From NCBI GenBank assembly GCA_027493055.1, contig JAPUDO010000126.1:11901-75900 (forward strand): DNA of 64,000 nucleotides, read 5' to 3'. The notes under the pieces were generated by a model. It worked only from the letters and a program-made list of their open reading frames with translations, was not told the origin of the DNA and made no database searches. This DNA comes from Niabella sp. GTDB taxonomy: Bacteria > Bacteroidota > Bacteroidia > Chitinophagales > Chitinophagaceae. Within the stretch, counting starts at the first letter, position 1; each line of letters starts with the position of its first letter. Below, in pieces: positions 5,075 through 55,925 of this stretch. The position numbers and the translations under genes are program-made.

Positions 5075-5301
5075 TGGGCTATTACTTTTTTAAAATCCTC
5101 AAATGATATCGCATCTTCTCCAAAAGGCTTATCGAGCATTTCCATTAATTCTGTGCTATCTTTTTCAGAAAGTTCGGGGAAAGTATCTTGCTGGCTTTGC
5201 GCATTAAAGTATTCAAAATCTATACTTAATAATTCCAAAAGATTTTCATTATTTGTTTTAGAAATTTTATCCAACAGATCCTGCTTTAAAGTAGTTTCCA
5301 T
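5059..5301 (-). CDS. Putative cognate antitoxin
   Basis: 80 aa acidic ORF directly upstream of the toxin and overlapping it by 16 nt; C-terminal ISFEDFKKVIAQW is typical of Bacteroidota antitoxins. Confidence 0.7.
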   Translation of the reverse strand: METTLKQDLLDKISKTNNENLLELLSIDFEYFNAQSQQDTFPELSEKDSTELMEMLDKPFGEDAISFEDFKKVIAQWRTK

Positions 5302-5327
5302 AATTTTTTTTTAAAGGTACAAAAAAC

Positions 5328-6284
5328 TCAGCCTCGTATTTTTTTTAGAATCCCGTTCATATCCTTTAAACATATTTCCTCAGCTGCGTATTTCCCGGCA
5401 TCATAACTATCTGCTTTGTCAAAAATCTTTTCTACTTCAACCTTATCTTTTCCATCAGGAGAAATAATATTTCCTTTAAATAATATTTCTCCGTTCGCTA
5501 TTTGAGCACGAGCGCTGATAGGTGTGGAGCATCCGCCCATTAAAGCACTTAGAAAATCGCGCTCTATTTTTACACAGGTTGCCGTATCAATGTCATTTAA
5601 AGCTGAACAGGCCGCAAGTGTATGGGTATCGTCAGTTCTGCCAACCACCATGATCGCGCCTTGCGCAGGAGCAGGCAACATCCAATCCAGGTCTATACTA
5701 TTTTCCGGCCGAAGGTTAATACGTTCCAAACCCGCTGCTGCAAAAATGGCCCCATCCCAATTACTTTCCGCCACTTTTTTCAAACGCGTATTTACATTAC
5801 CCCGCAGGTTTTCAATAGTCGTATTAGGGAAACGGTGCAGCCACTGTGCGCGGCGGCGGATACTGCTGGTGGCAATAGTAAGAGATGACAGTTGACGGTT
5901 GACAGTTGACAGGTTTTCTTCCTCTAAAACAATGAGGCTGTCATCTGTCATCTGTCCTCTGTGAACTAATATATCCTTATAATTCGCCCTTTTTAATACT
6001 GCAGCCTGGCTGATGCCCTGTGGCAATTGTACCGGCACATCTTTCATACTATGTACAGCAATATCAATCTTTTCTCCAAGGAGGGCAATATCAAGGCTGC
6101 GGGTAAACACACCCTGTACGCCCATTGCATATAATGGCGTTACCAGGTCTATATCACCTTCGCTTTTTATATAAACCAGCTCAGCCTTATGGCCATTACG
6201 TTCCAGCAAACTTTTTACAAGATCGGCCTGCCATACGGCCAGCTGGCTCTCGCGGGTACCTATTCGGATGGGGTTATTTTGCAT
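5328..6284 (-). CDS. hemC: Porphobilinogen deaminase
   Basis: IGTRESQLAVWQA, DIAVHSMKDVP, LRGNVNTRL, LPAPAQGA and GGCSTPI. Confidence 0.97.
   Translation of the reverse strand: MQNNPIRIGTRESQLAVWQADLVKSLLERNGHKAELVYIKSEGDIDLVTPLYAMGVQGVFTRSLDIALLGEKIDIAVHSMKDVPVQLPQGISQAAVLKRANYKDILVHRGQMTDDSLIVLEEENLSTVNRQLSSLTIATSSIRRRAQWLHRFPNTTIENLRGNVNTRLKKVAESNWDGAIFAAAGLERINLRPENSIDLDWMLPAPAQGAIMVVGRTDDTHTLAACSALNDIDTATCVKIERDFLSALMGGCSTPISARAQIANGEILFKGNIISPDGKDKVEVEKIFDKADSYDAGKYAAEEICLKDMNGILKKIRG
5883..5963. repeat. Heptamer palindrome (RG[A/T]TGAC)n inside the hemC coding sequence
   Basis: AGATGACAGTTGACGGTTGACAGTTGACAG (5883-5912) faces CTGTCATCTGTCATCTGTC (5938-5956). Confidence 0.85.
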
Positions 6285-7525
6285 CAGGACATTTGCAGGT
6301 AGTCATTAATCAAATTAATAAACTGGCAGCCTTTATCATTCTTTGTTTTGAGATTTACGGCTAATTGCTTCACCGCTTTCTGGGCTTTTAAAGTCTGCTC
6401 TTTCAGCACAACATCTTTAGCAAACTCACAGGAGAAATCCTGCATTTTATCAATTTCCTGCAACTTGCTTTTCCATGTTTTAAGGTGAAGCACATAGCGA
6501 TAATCTTTCAGCCACTGCCAGAACTCCTGTGTATAATGCGCAATGATGGCTTCGGCCTTAGGCACTTCTGCACGGCGGCGCGCCAGGGTCTTATCTAAGA
6601 TAGTAGAAGAAATTTCATCAACATCTATCACCAGCTTACCCTTCATCTGCTTTACATCAGGATGTACATTTACAGGAATAGAAAGATCTAATATCAGCTT
6701 ATCATCGGCTTCATTGAAATGCCCGGGCATCACTGTAGGCTCATTAGCATTTGTGCACACAATGACCACATCAGCGGCGGCAATAGCTTCCCTCCTGGCC
6801 TTATACTCACAAAAATGAATGCCGTTCGCTTTTGATAAAGCCAGTGCAGTATCATCAGTACGGTTCATTACCGTAAGCTTCACGGTCGGGAAATAACTGA
6901 TCAGGTTTTTACAAACATTAGAACCAAATTTACCCGCACCAATTACCAGTATCTTTTTAGAAGCAATATCAGGCATTGCCTGCAACAGCTCTATAGCAGC
7001 AAAAGAAACAGACACCGTACCATTGCTCAGCTCCGTTTCTGTTTTAATTCTTTTCGAAGCCTGGAAAACAAAATTCAGCGTACGGTCCATAACCGGGCCA
7101 ATTAGTTCATAAGCCTTTGCCAGTTCTACCGATTTCTTGATCTGTCCCAGTATTTCATAATCTCCCAGTATCTGGGAATCCAGGCCGGCTGATACCTGGA
7201 ACAGGTGCTGTAAAGCAGTATTACCGTTTTTTAAATAGGCATACTCAAAAAAAGTCTTACGGTCGGCCTTGCAATGCTCCAGCAACAGGTTCACCAATTG
7301 TATTACAGACTCTGCAAACCCGTAAATTTCGGTACGGTTGCATGTAGACACCACAAAAATGCTTTTTATCCCCGCTGCTTTGGCTTCCTGCGCCAGGACC
7401 GCGAATTCCTCATTATTAATAGAAAACAATCCACGTGTGGCCGCATCAGCTTTATGATAGTTGATCCCGGCAACACAAAACCTGTCGAGCACCTGTTTTG
7501 AAATATGAAAATCTTCTGCAGACAT
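6284..7525 (-). CDS. hemA: Glutamyl-tRNA reductase
   Basis: VSTCNRTEIY, GLDSQILGDYEILGQ, VSVSFAA and IGAGKFG; TGATG overlap with hemC. Confidence 0.97.
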   Translation of the reverse strand: MSAEDFHISKQVLDRFCVAGINYHKADAATRGLFSINNEEFAVLAQEAKAAGIKSIFVVSTCNRTEIYGFAESVIQLVNLLLEHCKADRKTFFEYAYLKNGNTALQHLFQVSAGLDSQILGDYEILGQIKKSVELAKAYELIGPVMDRTLNFVFQASKRIKTETELSNGTVSVSFAAIELLQAMPDIASKKILVIGAGKFGSNVCKNLISYFPTVKLTVMNRTDDTALALSKANGIHFCEYKARREAIAAADVVIVCTNANEPTVMPGHFNEADDKLILDLSIPVNVHPDVKQMKGKLVIDVDEISSTILDKTLARRRAEVPKAEAIIAHYTQEFWQWLKDYRYVLHLKTWKSKLQEIDKMQDFSCEFAKDVVLKEQTLKAQKAVKQLAVNLKTKNDKGCQFINLINDYLQMS

Positions 7526-19928: not shown

Positions 19929-20345
19929 ATTCCCCGGAGGGAGGGGGTATAGATTGACAGATGACGGTTAACCGATGCCAGTGGTCATTCTGCATTCAAT
20001 GTCGTTTGCTTAACGTTTCAGTGTAGTTGAGGGTGAATATAATATACGATGCAAGATGTACGTTGTACGAAATAAAGGCTAAAAGCTGAATGCAGAAAGC
20101 CTTATGCTTCAAGCCTCCGGCCTTTAGCCATAAATCATAATAGTACAGAAATTCTATACTTGAATAATCAACAATCCCCGCCTGACCGGATTGGCAGAAA
20201 GGTTCAATATTCATTGGAAATTGGTTTCGGGGACACTTTTTACATTTAACATTTAATATTTTACATTCTACATTTTATCCCTGCACTATTAATAATCGCC
20301 CCCTCTCCCCTCCGGGGACTTTTGATCTTACACTTTCAAACTCTA
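19929..20345. repeat. Mosaic of short palindromic and heptamer repeats bracketed by a GC-rich inverted pair
   Basis: TCCCCGGAGGG near 19930 is inverted to CCCTCCGGGGA near 20310; several 7-bp-periodic arrays lie between them. Confidence 0.65.
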
Positions 20346-33883: not shown

Positions 33884-33946
33884 AGATGACAGTTGAAAGT
33901 TGACAGATGACAGTAGTGCTGTCATCACCTATTCTCCGTCAACTAA
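33884..33946. repeat. Heptamer palindrome at the araD/araA junction
   Basis: AGATGAC AGTTGAA AGTTGAC AGATGAC AG followed by CTGTCATC...GTCAACT; same unit as in hemC. Confidence 0.8.
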
Positions 33947-44599: not shown

Positions 44600-45080
44600 T
44601 TTAGTTGATAGTTCATGGTTGATGGTTCATGGAAGAACAAATCCAACCTATTACATAGATTCTCTGAGTTTGGTTATCATTTTACATAACAATTCATACT
44701 CGTTATAATACTTTTTAAACGATTCTTCGGTAATATAAGTTCTCATTTTTGACAGAAAAAGACAGGCCACAACCTCTATTGATGATTCTAAGTGCAATAT
44801 TTAAAAACCTCTTAAACTCTGGCACGGATTGCCCTGTGCTTCCCTCTGCAATATTCAATACAACAGAATCCGCCGCCCGTTTTATTTGAGAAGCAAGGTT
44901 AAAACGCTCTTCCACGGAAAACTGCCTTGCCAGCAAATCTATCTCGTTTGACAATTCCGCGGTTTTATGCCACACCTTCAAATCTTCAAATCTAAACGCC
45001 ATAGTTGAGAGTTAATAGTTCATTGCTTATAGTTCATAGCCTGTTCTGTGCGAACCATGAACCATGAACCATGAACTAAA
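44600..45080. repeat. Inverted (RGTT[C/G]AT)n arms enclosing the second four-helix-bundle gene
   Basis: 44600-44628 and 45052-45080 are reverse complements at 26/29; a third array at 45003-45039 can also pair with 45052-45080. Confidence 0.85.
44651..45002 (-). pseudogene. Four-helix-bundle (IVS/Avd-like) gene with a +1 frameshift
   Basis: MAFRFEDLKVW...SQIKRAADSVVLNIAEGS...FKRFLNIALR. Removing one A at ~44786 restores SSIEVVACLFLSKMRTYITEESFKKYYNEYELLCKMITKLRESM* ending at 44651. Confidence 0.8.
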
Positions 45081-53705: not shown

Positions 53706-54710
53706 ATGTGCTACTCCATCATTATAGTTAATTATAAAACCCCACAACTCGTTATAGATTGTGTCAGTTCCATATATAAAGACGTAGTGGCAAATAACAT
53801 AGAAATCATTGTGGTGGACAATGATTCAAACGACAACAGTAAAGATGTTATTTTATCAGCCTACCCAAACATCAGGTGGATTGAAATGAATTATAACAGT
53901 GGCTTTGCAAGAGCCAACAATGCAGGTATAAGAGCTGCTCAGGGGAACATTGTTTTGTTGCTCAACTCCGATACTCTAAACGAAGACGGAGCAATCGGTA
54001 AATGTTTTACCCGGTTTGAAAACGATGACTGTATCGCCGCCGGTGTTCAGTTACTAAACGCAGACAGAACGCCACAAATATCCGGCAACTATGTACTAAC
54101 CGGCGGACTCAATTATCTTATGGCATTGCCGTATATAGGCAGATTGATAAGAAAAGCCGGGTTACTCTTCGGAGTAAAAAAAACCAATATTGCTAATGCC
54201 ACGACAACCGCCGATGTGGATTGGATAAATGGCGCCTTTTTGATGGTAAAAAAATCAGCGATAGAGAATGCAGGATATTTAGATGAAGATTTCTTTCTTT
54301 ACTCTGAAGAAGCCGAATGGTGCAGCCGGTTAAAACGGGTTGGTAAACTTCGTATTTACGGAGACCTGCACGTGGTGCATTTAGAAGGTGGAAGCTCGGG
54401 TGATGCCTACAACTCTAAAACAAAAGGTTATCAAAATTTATCCGACAAAAAAGGTTACCAGATCATGCTCTCCAACTTTGTAAGATTTAGAAAAGAGTTC
54501 GGCTCATTCTGGTACCTGTTTCATTTGCTGATCAACATAATAACTATTGTAATAGCCTTTGTTACAGTCGTTATAAAAACACTGCTGCTCAGACCAGATA
54601 TAAGATCTGCGTGGAAAAACTGGCGGGGATATGCCGCTAATATAATACGCTCCTTACAATATTTTTTTACTATACTATCAAACAAACCTCATTTTTACAA
54701 AATATTATAG
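53706..54710 (+). CDS. Glycosyltransferase family 2 (rhamnosyltransferase-like)
   Basis: IIIVNY, VVDNDS, GFARANN, LLNSD, DWINGAF and DEDFFLYSEEAEW. Confidence 0.9.
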   Translation: MCYSIIIVNYKTPQLVIDCVSSIYKDVVANNIEIIVVDNDSNDNSKDVILSAYPNIRWIEMNYNSGFARANNAGIRAAQGNIVLLLNSDTLNEDGAIGKCFTRFENDDCIAAGVQLLNADRTPQISGNYVLTGGLNYLMALPYIGRLIRKAGLLFGVKKTNIANATTTADVDWINGAFLMVKKSAIENAGYLDEDFFLYSEEAEWCSRLKRVGKLRIYGDLHVVHLEGGSSGDAYNSKTKGYQNLSDKKGYQIMLSNFVRFRKEFGSFWYLFHLLINIITIVIAFVTVVIKTLLLRPDIRSAWKNWRGYAANIIRSLQYFFTILSNKPHFYKIL

Positions 54711-55835
54711 TGCATTAATCTTGCTTACAGCCTTCCCTGCAATATTATCCCAGCTGAAATGCTCAAAAAACGCCTGAGGTATCTCTTCTTTTGGTAAACG
54801 CAATTGCTGAACAATAGCATTGGCAAAACCGCTGCTATCACCATCGGGAATGACCGCTAAGCAATTTCCTGCTACTGCTGCGGGGATTCCATAGGCACCA
54901 GCTTTAAAGGAAACAGCAGAAGTATTAGCTCCCAAAGCCTCTACCAGCTTGGTTTTAATACCGCCGCCGTCCGTAACAGGATTAATAAAAAGATCCGCTG
55001 CTTTAAAATACAGATCTATATCTTCCACAAAACCTTTATAAATAATGTGCTGCTCTTTGTAAGCTTTTAGCTCATCGTAGCGCTCCGGCAATCGTAAACC
55101 ACAAATAACAATCCTGTAAGAAAATGAACAGGCTTTGAGCAATTCAGGATTGATCTCATTCAGTATCCTGTCAAGCGCGTCCCTGTTTGGTGCATAGTCA
55201 AGCGTACCATTAAAAAGAATGAGCTTCGTATCTGCCGGCAAGTCTAACTCTTTGCAAACCGATTGCCGGCATTGTTCTTTATCGGTTAGCGCAGGAGCTT
55301 GTGTTGCCTCAATACCATAAGTAATGACCGCGCATTTACCGGCATTTAACTTATATTCCTTTATAGCGTACTCCCGGTCTTCTTCCGTAATAAAAAAATT
55401 AAAATCGGCTGTTTGATGCGCAAATTTTTCATAGCGATACATAATGGGCCACCACCATTTACCCATCGACTTAAACCTGGCAGCTTCAATATTATGTGAA
55501 TGAAAGATCAGCTTTAGACCGCCATATTTTTTTAACAGGTACCCTAACCAGGCATAATAAGGATGCTCTATAATAACATGTTTGATCCCTCTTGTTTTAC
55601 AGGCTTTTTTTATTTTATTAAAGATAGAAAAATCAGCATAACGAGATTTTTCCCCAGTGCTGCCCAAAACATCTATAAAATCAATACCCTCTTCTTTACC
55701 AGTATTTTCAGAAACAGTAAAACAGGTTACGGGCGCATATCTGGCTACATGCTTTAAAAAATAATAAATACCCTTCTCCCCTCCCTTTATGGCAGGGATT
55801 ATTTTGTAGGGTACTATGGATGCAATGTTGCTCAA
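54705..55835 (-). CDS. Glycosyltransferase family 4
   Basis: IFHSHNIEA, FNGTLDYAPN and GGGIKTKLVEAL; likely TTG start at 55835, because the longer ORF runs into a repeat. Confidence 0.88.
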   Translation of the reverse strand: MSNIASIVPYKIIPAIKGGEKGIYYFLKHVARYAPVTCFTVSENTGKEEGIDFIDVLGSTGEKSRYADFSIFNKIKKACKTRGIKHVIIEHPYYAWLGYLLKKYGGLKLIFHSHNIEAARFKSMGKWWWPIMYRYEKFAHQTADFNFFITEEDREYAIKEYKLNAGKCAVITYGIEATQAPALTDKEQCRQSVCKELDLPADTKLILFNGTLDYAPNRDALDRILNEINPELLKACSFSYRIVICGLRLPERYDELKAYKEQHIIYKGFVEDIDLYFKAADLFINPVTDGGGIKTKLVEALGANTSAVSFKAGAYGIPAAVAGNCLAVIPDGDSSGFANAIVQQLRLPKEEIPQAFFEHFSWDNIAGKAVSKINAL

Positions 55836-55844
55836 GAACAAATA

Positions 55845-55925
55845 ACAGATGACAGTTGACCGTAGCGGCAAAGCCATCCACATTATTAATTATTAATTAT
55901 TAATTGTTAATTACTAATTGCTAAC
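55845..55925. repeat. Two heptamer arrays at the yfhO/GT4 junction
   Basis: ACAGATGACAGTTGACCG (hemC-type unit) and (ATTATTA)n at 55882-55925, which overlaps the yfhO stop. Confidence 0.75.

Follow-up and report, generated by a model that had tools for sequence, protein, structure and literature searches.

A hairpin of heptamer arrays translated within hemC of Niabella belongs to a dispersed, mostly intergenic repeat family

Results

A heptamer-armed hairpin lies in frame within hemC

The window analysed here (a stretch of 64,000 nucleotides from a Niabella sp. genome, positions 11,901 to 75,900 of contig JAPUDO010000126.1) contains hemC, the gene for porphobilinogen deaminase, as a 318-amino acid open reading frame (ORF) on the minus strand (5328–6284; assigned from the ORF and its Pfam matches). 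Inside this gene, at 5877–5969, stands a hairpin whose arms are two arrays of a 7-nt unit (GACAG followed by 2 nt) that converge on a spacer. Throughout the text, G denotes genomes (G000 being the present Niabella genome), C the contigs of G000 and L the hemC loci of relatives. A whole-genome search of G000 (5.75 Mb) gave one match, so that the genome holds a single hemC copy, and this copy is a bona fide porphobilinogen deaminase. Both Pfam domains are found above the curated cut-offs (PF01379, E = 5.6e-67, 225.7 bits; PF03900, E = 2.2e-14, 54 bits), the homologues in the PDB are the structures of E. coli HemC (1PDA/1YPN, E ~ 1e-52; 9e-53 to E. coli HemC), and the catalytic and cofactor motifs are intact on either side of the insert (HSxKD, TSSxRR and the GGC that holds the cofactor cysteine). 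Residues H78, S79, K81, D82, S141, R143, R144, G250, G251 and C252 are invariant in 88 HemC sequences, that of the window included.

On the coding strand of hemC the hairpin consists of GACAGATGACAGATGACAG, a 25-nt spacer and then CTGTCAACTGTCAACCGTC, with 16 of 19 positions complementary; on re-reading the sequence, a preliminary description of the element proved correct in the strings of the arms, their complementarity, the 25-nt loop and the encoded peptide. Written in codons, the coding strand runs GTT CAC AGA GGA CAG ATG ACA GAT GAC AGC, the 25-nt spacer region, and CTG TCA ACT GTC AAC CGT CAA CTG TCA TCT CTT ACT. An inverted-repeat search delimits arms of 30 nt (5883–5912 and 5938–5967, 77% complementary with 25 nt between them), while Tandem Repeats Finder (TRF) places period-7 arrays at 5886–5912 and 5938–5962. 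The RNA fold of the segment has a predicted energy of -28.2 kcal/mol (z = -3.51), which none of 200 dinucleotide shuffles matches. Against an expectation of 0.08, the window contains the pattern GACRGNNGACRG 7 times, a number that 0 of 100 shuffles reach; five of these matches lie in hemC and the other two at 19956 and 33902.

Arm 1 (5887–5912, plus strand) contains four cores at 7-nt spacing, GACAG TT GACGG TT GACAG TT GACAG, and corresponds on the hemC coding strand to CTGTCAACTGTCAACCGTCAACTGTC, which encodes LSTVNRQLS. It is preceded by a non-periodic outer lead, AGTAAGAGAT (5877–5886, plus strand), which encodes S-L-T on the coding strand and agrees with ...TAAGAGAT, the lead found ahead of the initial GACAG unit where the repeat is intergenic. 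The spacer, which forms the 25-nt hairpin loop (5913–5937), encodes LIVLEEEN. Arm 2 (5938–5965) runs on the minus, that is coding, strand as [TT]CACAG AG GACAG AT GACAG AT GACAG and encodes (V)HRGQMTDDS. Its lead is TTAGTT (5964–5969, minus strand), an alternative outer lead of the family that coincides here with the conserved hemC codons L106-V107, and whose form TAGTT stands before the first unit in 9 of 41 other copies. Three canonical GACAGAT units running on the coding strand would give an in-frame TGA; the position of this would-be stop is occupied by a GAGG variant unit (AGA GGA for AGA TGA), so that there is no stop and the frame is open. Since the GAGG variant is likewise common in intergenic copies, its presence at this position is compatible with selection for an open frame and does not prove it.

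Two ordinary classes of hairpin were tried and set aside. The element is not an intrinsic terminator, since the sequence behind the stem has no U-run (coding strand, CUCUUACUAUUGCC; other strand, CUCUGUGAACUAAUAU), and an Rfam 15 scan of 5300–6300 revealed no known RNA family (mir-192 only, at 18.2 bits against a 54-bit cut-off, E = 0.36).

Around the insert the ORF translates as ...DILVHRGQMTDDSLIVLEEENLSTVNRQLSSLTIATSS..., and the variable segment itself (5877–5963, minus strand; 87 nt, codons H108–T136) yields the peptide HRGQMTDDSLIVLEEENLSTVNRQLSSLT between the strands DILV and IATSS, at the start of HemC domain 2 and between the first two strands of that domain. As the preliminary description had it, the element keeps the frame. 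Loops without repeats have a baseline length of 16 aa, and the element brings the loop to 29 aa, a gain of 13 aa (14 aa relative to E. coli HemC, where the extra residues fall between the strands DAFVS and IVGTSS). An AlphaFold2 model built on the 88 homologues retains the HemC fold (pLDDT 89.3, pTM 0.88) and places two short helices in the insert, at residues 114–121 and 128–132; the mean pLDDT is 81 for residues 111–120 and 62 for residues 121–130, against 89 for the whole protein. With the fold kept in the model and the insert at reduced pLDDT, the loop appears to be a structurally permissive site of HemC, and from the known architecture of HemC it would be expected to lie at the protein surface, clear of the cofactor cleft.

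The arms belong to a dispersed family found mostly between genes

The whole-genome TRF output for G000 contains 706 rows of period 7, compared with 98 of period 6 and 341 of period 8. Counted as arrays of at least three units G[AG]C[AG]GNN, the GACAG family comprises 43 arrays in this genome, 41 of them outside hemC, and at most 7 of the 43 lie inside ORFs, which make up 86.7% of the genome (P = 3.5e-25). The arrays are not plain microsatellites: they have in common an outer lead that is not periodic (consensus TTTAAG(W)T or TTTTAGTT; position -4 is A in 38 of 41 copies, and position -3 is G in 39 of them) and show a recurrent succession of unit variants with AG, AT and TT spacers. The hemC arms are 90–97% identical to dispersed copies over 25–35 nt. 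An intergenic array at C6 50056–50085, for example, matches arm 2 at 29 of 30 nt with an identical order of units, and one at C10 21180–21214 matches arm 1, lead included, at 91% over 35 nt; no dispersed copy in G000 matches the hemC hairpin through the spacer. Because intergenic copies have the lead in common with the hemC arms, and likewise the succession of unit variants, the arms are members of the same dispersed, overwhelmingly intergenic family, an assignment that the preliminary description had already made and that the arms of a gene-carrying cassette on C114 (below) also support.

Within the window, an intergenic GACAG hairpin occupies 33884–33946 (plus strand) in a 93-nt gap between two minus-strand ORFs, and its first arm (C126 45784–45813) agrees with hemC arm 1 at 27 of 30 nt. 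Two short solo arrays, both on the plus strand, complete the set: GATTGACAGATGACGGTTAAC at 19953–19975, intergenic on a crude ORF map, and ACAGATGACAGTTGACCG at 55845–55862, at the 5' edge of the longest possible ORF there (54705–55883, minus strand), within its first ~13 codons, the true start of which may differ. All three places had been listed in the preliminary description as intergenic; GACAG units are present at each, and the first two are indeed intergenic on the crude ORF map, but the array at 55845 lies at the edge of a possible ORF.

The arrays are also polar relative to genes (e.g., C61:11905, C68:122522, C106:18576 and C118:102774, as well as 33884 in the window). Eighteen of 39 intergenic arrays start close behind an ORF on the same strand, no more than 25 nt downstream of its stop codon (16 of them within 10 nt), none of the 39 has an ORF within 25 nt on its 3' side, and the family lead (TAAG.. 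or TAG..) often provides or adjoins the stop codon.

When 25 Niabella genomes (G000–G024) were searched, overlapping matches to the GACAG pattern numbered 58 in G000, 21 in G020 and 10 in G003, and the family was absent or nearly so in the other 22; the control counts of this pattern search were disregarded, GACAG being identical when read in reverse. Abundance in 3 of 25 genomes indicates that heptamer families wax and wane fast between species.

Heptamer arrays box IVP genes

A search for converging GACAG arrays led to C114 22026–22487, where the arms GACAGTTGACAGTTGATGAATGACAG / CTGTCATCCGTCATCTATCATCTGTCAA, with outer leads as in hemC, stand around a 121-aa ORF. The ORF encodes a four-helix-bundle protein of the 23S_rRNA_IVP family (PF05635, E = 3.8e-38) with weak bAvd-like similarity. 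G000 gives 20 IVP matches, and all 18 of the genes whose flanks were checked are boxed by inverted heptamer-type repeats, the unit type differing from one IVP gene to the next; one of these flanking types, TGAGTGA, is, on the opposite strand, the CCACTCA-like type that occupies the hemC loop of other species. Two such IVP cassettes lie in the window, at about 1498–1979 and 44600–45080. Between the hemC arms there is the 25-nt spacer and no IVP gene. The hemC hairpin is, in other words, a cargo-less cassette, with the arms of an IVP cassette and no gene inside. The possibility that its spacer is a deletion remnant of the C114 interior was examined and is not supported (local alignment score 16 against 14 +/- 2 for shuffles, p = 0.2).

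Y1 (RAYT/IS200-type) transposases were considered as movers of the arrays and showed no link to them, as none of the six Y1 genes in G000 has a heptamer array within 500 nt (background 15%). Y1 transposase genes are widespread in the genus, and in G000 their flanks hold recurring stem-loops, short and GC-rich, of which GCCGCTATGCGGC and GCTGCTACGCAGC are examples (REP-like stem-loops accompany the Y1 sites at C53:46630, C76:56314, C31:25641, C35:10681 and others); together they constitute a separate REP/RAYT-like system in the same genome. Neither a transposase-bearing parent nor a terminal duplication was found for the heptamer cassettes, the Y1 family being the one examined among transposases.

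The hemC loop is rewritten by repeats across Chitinophagales

Alignment of the hemC loop in 88 Chitinophagales revealed a repeat-free baseline form of 48 nt (16 aa, pattern YKxxxxFLxDxxxxAx) in Chitinophaga, Saprospiraceae and many metagenome-assembled genomes (MAGs), and array-bearing forms of 60–147 nt (up to 49 aa). In all 88 the loop length is a multiple of 3. The commonest right-arm unit, found in several genera, is CCAYTCA; other loops are built of CTGTCAA (the window type), CTGAAAC (L015–L019), AATTTCA (L041), CAATTCT (L044) or CCTTCAA (L053). Folding z-scores are negative in 22 of 24 array-bearing loops, down to -9.9, and some loops carry arrays that are non-complementary (L041) or direct (L013). 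At L022:1455–1515 (G018) a 21-nt unit (3 x 7 nt, encoding TPDLISQ) is repeated ~2.5 times in frame, the form that should be expected of survivors of in-frame slippage, and the loops of L018 and L019 encode peptides with a 7-aa period.

The unit type in hemC might have been thought to track the abundant type of each genome, and this is contradicted on both sides: G006 and G024 have a decayed GACAG loop in hemC and no GACAG array elsewhere in the genome, and G003 has GACAG arrays in its genome, yet a hemC loop of the CCATTCA type.

Two further observations concern individual loci. At L013:2060–2110 (minus strand; Niabella group), two direct AAATCAG arrays flank a perfect 14-nt palindrome, CCGATAGCTATCGG, which looks like a tiny element within a heptamer array and recalls the small dispersed repeats inside heptamer arrays of Nostoc. 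In G003 and G004 (loci L014 and L023) hemC is in pieces, with one in-frame TGA and a frame change near residue 245 in the former and a split over four frames in the latter; pseudogenes or errors of assembly could account for this, G004 being only 72% complete.

Loops are inherited over short distances and exchanged between lineages

In the nearest relative, L031 (86% aa identity), the 87-nt segment is present as well. Its arms are almost unchanged, with one change per arm when the arms are taken as drawn in the preliminary description, and its spacer has diverged at 11 of 24 nt. L003, L032 (N. hibiscisoli) and L033 contain a decayed version of the segment with the same length. As the nearest relative carries the hairpin and three other Niabella species its decayed version, this is not a recent invasion; the hemC hairpin is an old, inherited feature and not a fresh jump, and over short distances it is passed on vertically. 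The outcome that the preliminary description had named as refuting it, protein conservation with silent drift in genomes lacking the repeat, was not what these comparisons gave: in G006 and G024, which have no GACAG array elsewhere, the segment is recognisable, but its changes are mostly non-synonymous and fall evenly on the codon positions.

On a hemC tree built without the loop columns, the loop types form a mosaic. L009, with a 63-nt loop of the CCACTCA type, is nested with 99–100% support among the GACAG-type loci L003, L032 and L033, and is 91.6% identical to L003 outside the loop, the loops themselves being unrelated; L002, also of the CCACTCA type, groups with the window. The approximately unbiased (AU) test rejects a single clade both for the GACAG-type carriers (p = 0.0006) and for the Niabella carriers of the CCACTCA type (p = 0.0007). 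A second pair, L042 and L037, is 95.7% identical outside loops that are unrelated. In L042 (1807–1887; MAG Chitinophagaceae CANCPA010000259) a GC-rich palindrome with perfect pairing over 19 bp, CCCCCATCCCCTAAAGGGG / CCCCTTTAGGGGATGGGGG, fills the hemC loop and gives the peptide PPSPKGELDSDHNTMPPFRGWGA. It stands where L037 has a heptamer hairpin, and of that hairpin the last heptamer unit alone is kept. The palindrome arm has 24 copies in its own genome and 0 in the control, and the loop folds with z = -9.8. That two unrelated dispersed hairpin families have occupied the same site is an argument that repeat DNA is really transferred to the loop; it also points either to hairpin-targeted replacement or to selection to keep a hairpin. 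Between lineages, then, the loop is exchanged or replaced as a unit.

Conservation in the arms appears to lie at the level of the nucleic acid

To locate what is conserved, the window was compared by codon position with L003, L032 and L033 (three comparisons that are not independent), the arms amounting to 63 nt. In the hemC flanks third positions differ by 48–60% and first and second positions by 10–17%, whereas the arms differ by 14–29%, equally at all three codon positions. At third positions the arms have thus diverged roughly half as much as the flanks (p = 0.005, 0.13 and 0.07, one value per comparison). Divergence of the spacer has reached saturation (50–88%, with 16–17 of 24 nt differing from the next clade), and the spacer evolves without detectable constraint; codon changes in the arms and insert are mainly non-synonymous. 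Because the arms are even over codon positions and slower than nearby silent sites, these data are suggestive, within the 63 nt that carry the signal, of conservation acting on the nucleic acid and not on the peptide.

It takes the deeper comparison for this silent-site signal to appear. At the short distance that separates the window from L031, 4 of 20 third positions in the arms and 59 of 257 elsewhere have changed, which is no difference. Nor was convincing covariation found: both arm differences between the window and L031 break pairs, and L035, L037 and L039 show three double-sided changes among many broken pairs, with an unfavourable RNAalifold covariation term of +1.78. The conservation of the arms could come from recognition of the arms, from templated correction of one arm by the other, or from correction by other copies, the last being unlikely in G006 and G024 because no other GACAG arrays exist there.

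Other housekeeping genes carry in-frame arrays

In-frame heptamer arrays are found in other housekeeping genes of G000, namely metG, hisS, yggS, lipB and a metH-like gene. The 710-aa ORF of metG contains a full in-frame hairpin (C62 27704–27801; unit GCTGAAA/AAGCC, -27.5 kcal/mol), situated in the linker before the C-terminal tRNA-binding domain. In hisS, a 5-unit GACAG-type array (C12:57521–57555) encodes NCHLSTANCQLS, and yggS has a 5-unit AATATTG array (C74:42448–42483; AQHSTFNIQYSIL). Despite their arrays, HisS and YggS are no longer than their solved homologues (6nhi and 6kzw); the arrays have overwritten ancestral residues and left the length unchanged. As they add no length, plain insertion cannot be the whole mechanism.

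Discussion

Overall, we consider it probable that 5877–5969 is a cargo-less, in-frame copy of a GACAG heptamer-armed hairpin cassette, carried as a tolerated passenger in a permissive loop of HemC. Selection would act only against versions with a broken frame or a new stop. Change in the arrays would come from slippage, with only in-frame outcomes such as the 21-nt duplications surviving, and they may also give way to other hairpin repeats, the probable routes being recombination between the conserved flanks or insertion targeted to hairpins. The preliminary description had seen here the insertion or expansion of a repeat in an essential gene. This part of it is supported, with the amendments that the event is not recent and that insertion is not the sole process, given the 21-nt re-duplications and the overwriting.

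Several observations weigh against this reading. No insertion event has been caught, as there is no empty/filled pair among close relatives; reading the sequence directly, we found no target-site duplication and no direct repeat flanking the hemC hairpin, and no mobilising enzyme emerged from the movers checked (the six Y1 genes). The overwriting in hisS and yggS, together with the hemC loops of some relatives that consist wholly of array, fits in-situ spreading or conversion better than simple insertion. The nucleotide conservation of the arms is not predicted for a pure passenger that lacks arm-to-arm or copy-to-copy correction. Finally, the groups submitted to the AU test were named only after the first tree had been inspected.

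That same conservation is the natural starting point for a second explanation, in which the hairpin or its GACAG cores are a cis-acting nucleic-acid element selected at this place, acting on the hem-operon transcript or DNA as an RNase III-type processing or decay site akin to the stems of rRNA intervening sequences, as an array bound by an IVP-type protein, or as a site of pausing between HemC domains 1 and 2; a function of this kind would explain why a hairpin is retained here. Arms that are even over codon positions and slower than neighbouring third positions, around a saturated spacer, speak for such an element, and the negative z-scores of 22 of 24 array-bearing loops (down to -9.9), the three double-sided pair changes among L035, L037 and L039, and the history of L042, which lost a heptamer hairpin and gained another strong one (z = -9.8), point the same way. 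However, many Chitinophagales do without any insert and keep the 48-nt baseline; the arrays of L041, L013, L016 and L018 are non-complementary or direct, with z about 0; both arm differences between the window and L031 break pairs; the covariation term for L035/37/39 is unfavourable (+1.78), and there is neither a U-run nor an Rfam family. The exchange of one hairpin for another is, moreover, equally expected if repeats target hairpins. We regard a selected cis element at this site as unlikely, though it is the main rival of the passenger reading.

A purely local origin, by in-place slippage of a chance proto-repeat of period 7 with no exchange with the intergenic copies, appears to us quite improbable. 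It would account well for the in-frame 21-nt re-duplications of L022 and the 7-aa periodic peptides of L018 and L019, for the arrays of hisS and yggS that replace ancestral residues at unchanged length, and for arrays that begin within conserved flanking codons. Yet slippage gives direct and not inverted repeats, the lead and unit order are common to ~40 dispersed copies and to the arms of the IVP cassette, the loop types are incongruent with the gene tree, and in L042 an unrelated dispersed palindrome occupies the site. The notion that the 29 residues are an adaptive loop, providing HemC with a new interaction, stability or regulation, can draw on the two short helices predicted in the insert and on the peptides QxTxDS and LSTxNxQLSSL, which are recognisable in five Niabella genomes. 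It is very hard to reconcile with changes that are mostly non-synonymous and without a codon-position pattern, with a sequence and length that differ wholly between close relatives, and with a pLDDT that is lowest in the second half of the insert, and we give it hardly any credence.

The closest known phenomenon to the hemC hairpin would seem to be the Rickettsia palindromic elements (RPEs), palindromic repeats that are found between genes and in frame within housekeeping genes (PMC10969869). Like RPEs, the family of the hemC hairpin is dispersed, has both intergenic and in-frame copies, leaves host proteins intact and inserts where the fold tolerates it. RPEs, however, measure ~100–150 bp, have no tandem 7-nt units and encode one conserved peptide per family, whereas the arms in hemC are heptamer arrays, their peptide is unconserved, the site is rewritten with different units and the full-length relatives carry an IVP gene. 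The likeness proposed is one of mode of action and not of family membership.

Heptamer repeats have a history of their own. Mrazek and co-workers have reportedly dealt with long simple-sequence repeats of period 7, and heterocystous cyanobacteria carry STRR heptanucleotide tandem repeats, of which units such as CAACAGT and TTGGTCA would be one base from units seen here. The arrays in Niabella resemble known heptanucleotide repeats in the period-7 excess, in being mostly intergenic and often near gene ends, and in sometimes forming inverted pairs. Two described sets are TAACTGA of Beggiatoaceae, Cyanobacteria and Bacteroidetes (PMC4679880) and GGGNATC of Xanthomonas and Nostoc (PMC4692102), and in both papers heptamer repeats are described as under-represented within coding sequence. 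For neither set are hairpins translated in an essential gene, or any association with IVP genes, reported, and their units differ from those described here.

The gene-carrying cassettes suggest other parallels. As in the ORF-bearing 23S rRNA intervening sequences (IVSs; PF05635), the C114 element is a long stem of inverted terminal repeats around a gene for a four-helix bundle; unlike an rRNA IVS, the hemC copy is geneless, lies in the coding region of an mRNA and could not be excised without destroying the message. [quoted passage not shown] In the literature searched, we found no account of translated heptamer hairpins in Chitinophagaceae, nor of the combination of repeat, cassette and in-frame copy.

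A more far-reaching possibility, which we put forward as speculative and rather unlikely, is that heptamer hairpins are the footprints of an unrecognised IVP-linked system that writes, homogenises and replaces hairpins, that the arms are kept at the nucleotide level because the IVP protein or an RNase III-type nuclease recognises them, and that the hairpin in hemC serves its operon in cis, as a site of processing, decay or pausing and not as an inert passenger. If true, such a system would place hairpins at preferred sites, in-frame sites in essential genes among them, and the same machinery would explain both the spread of rRNA intervening sequences and the origin of heptamer repeats of the cyanobacterial type.

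A classic oddity, selfish palindromes translated as part of essential genes, has been known chiefly from Rickettsia. Tandem arrays of 7 bases lead here to the same outcome, in Bacteroidota that are free-living soil bacteria, and one site allows it to be traced over ~90 genomes. The hemC loop offers a natural time series of lengthening, overwriting and swapping by repeat DNA, from 16 to 49 residues, with the enzyme still functional. The conservation of the arms at the level of the nucleic acid and the exchange of loop cassettes between species are concrete hypotheses for the bench. In this single hairpin, the heptamer repeats that have been an old puzzle in cyanobacteria, the gene-carrying rRNA intervening sequences with their protein family, and the in-frame insertion of repeats are tied together.

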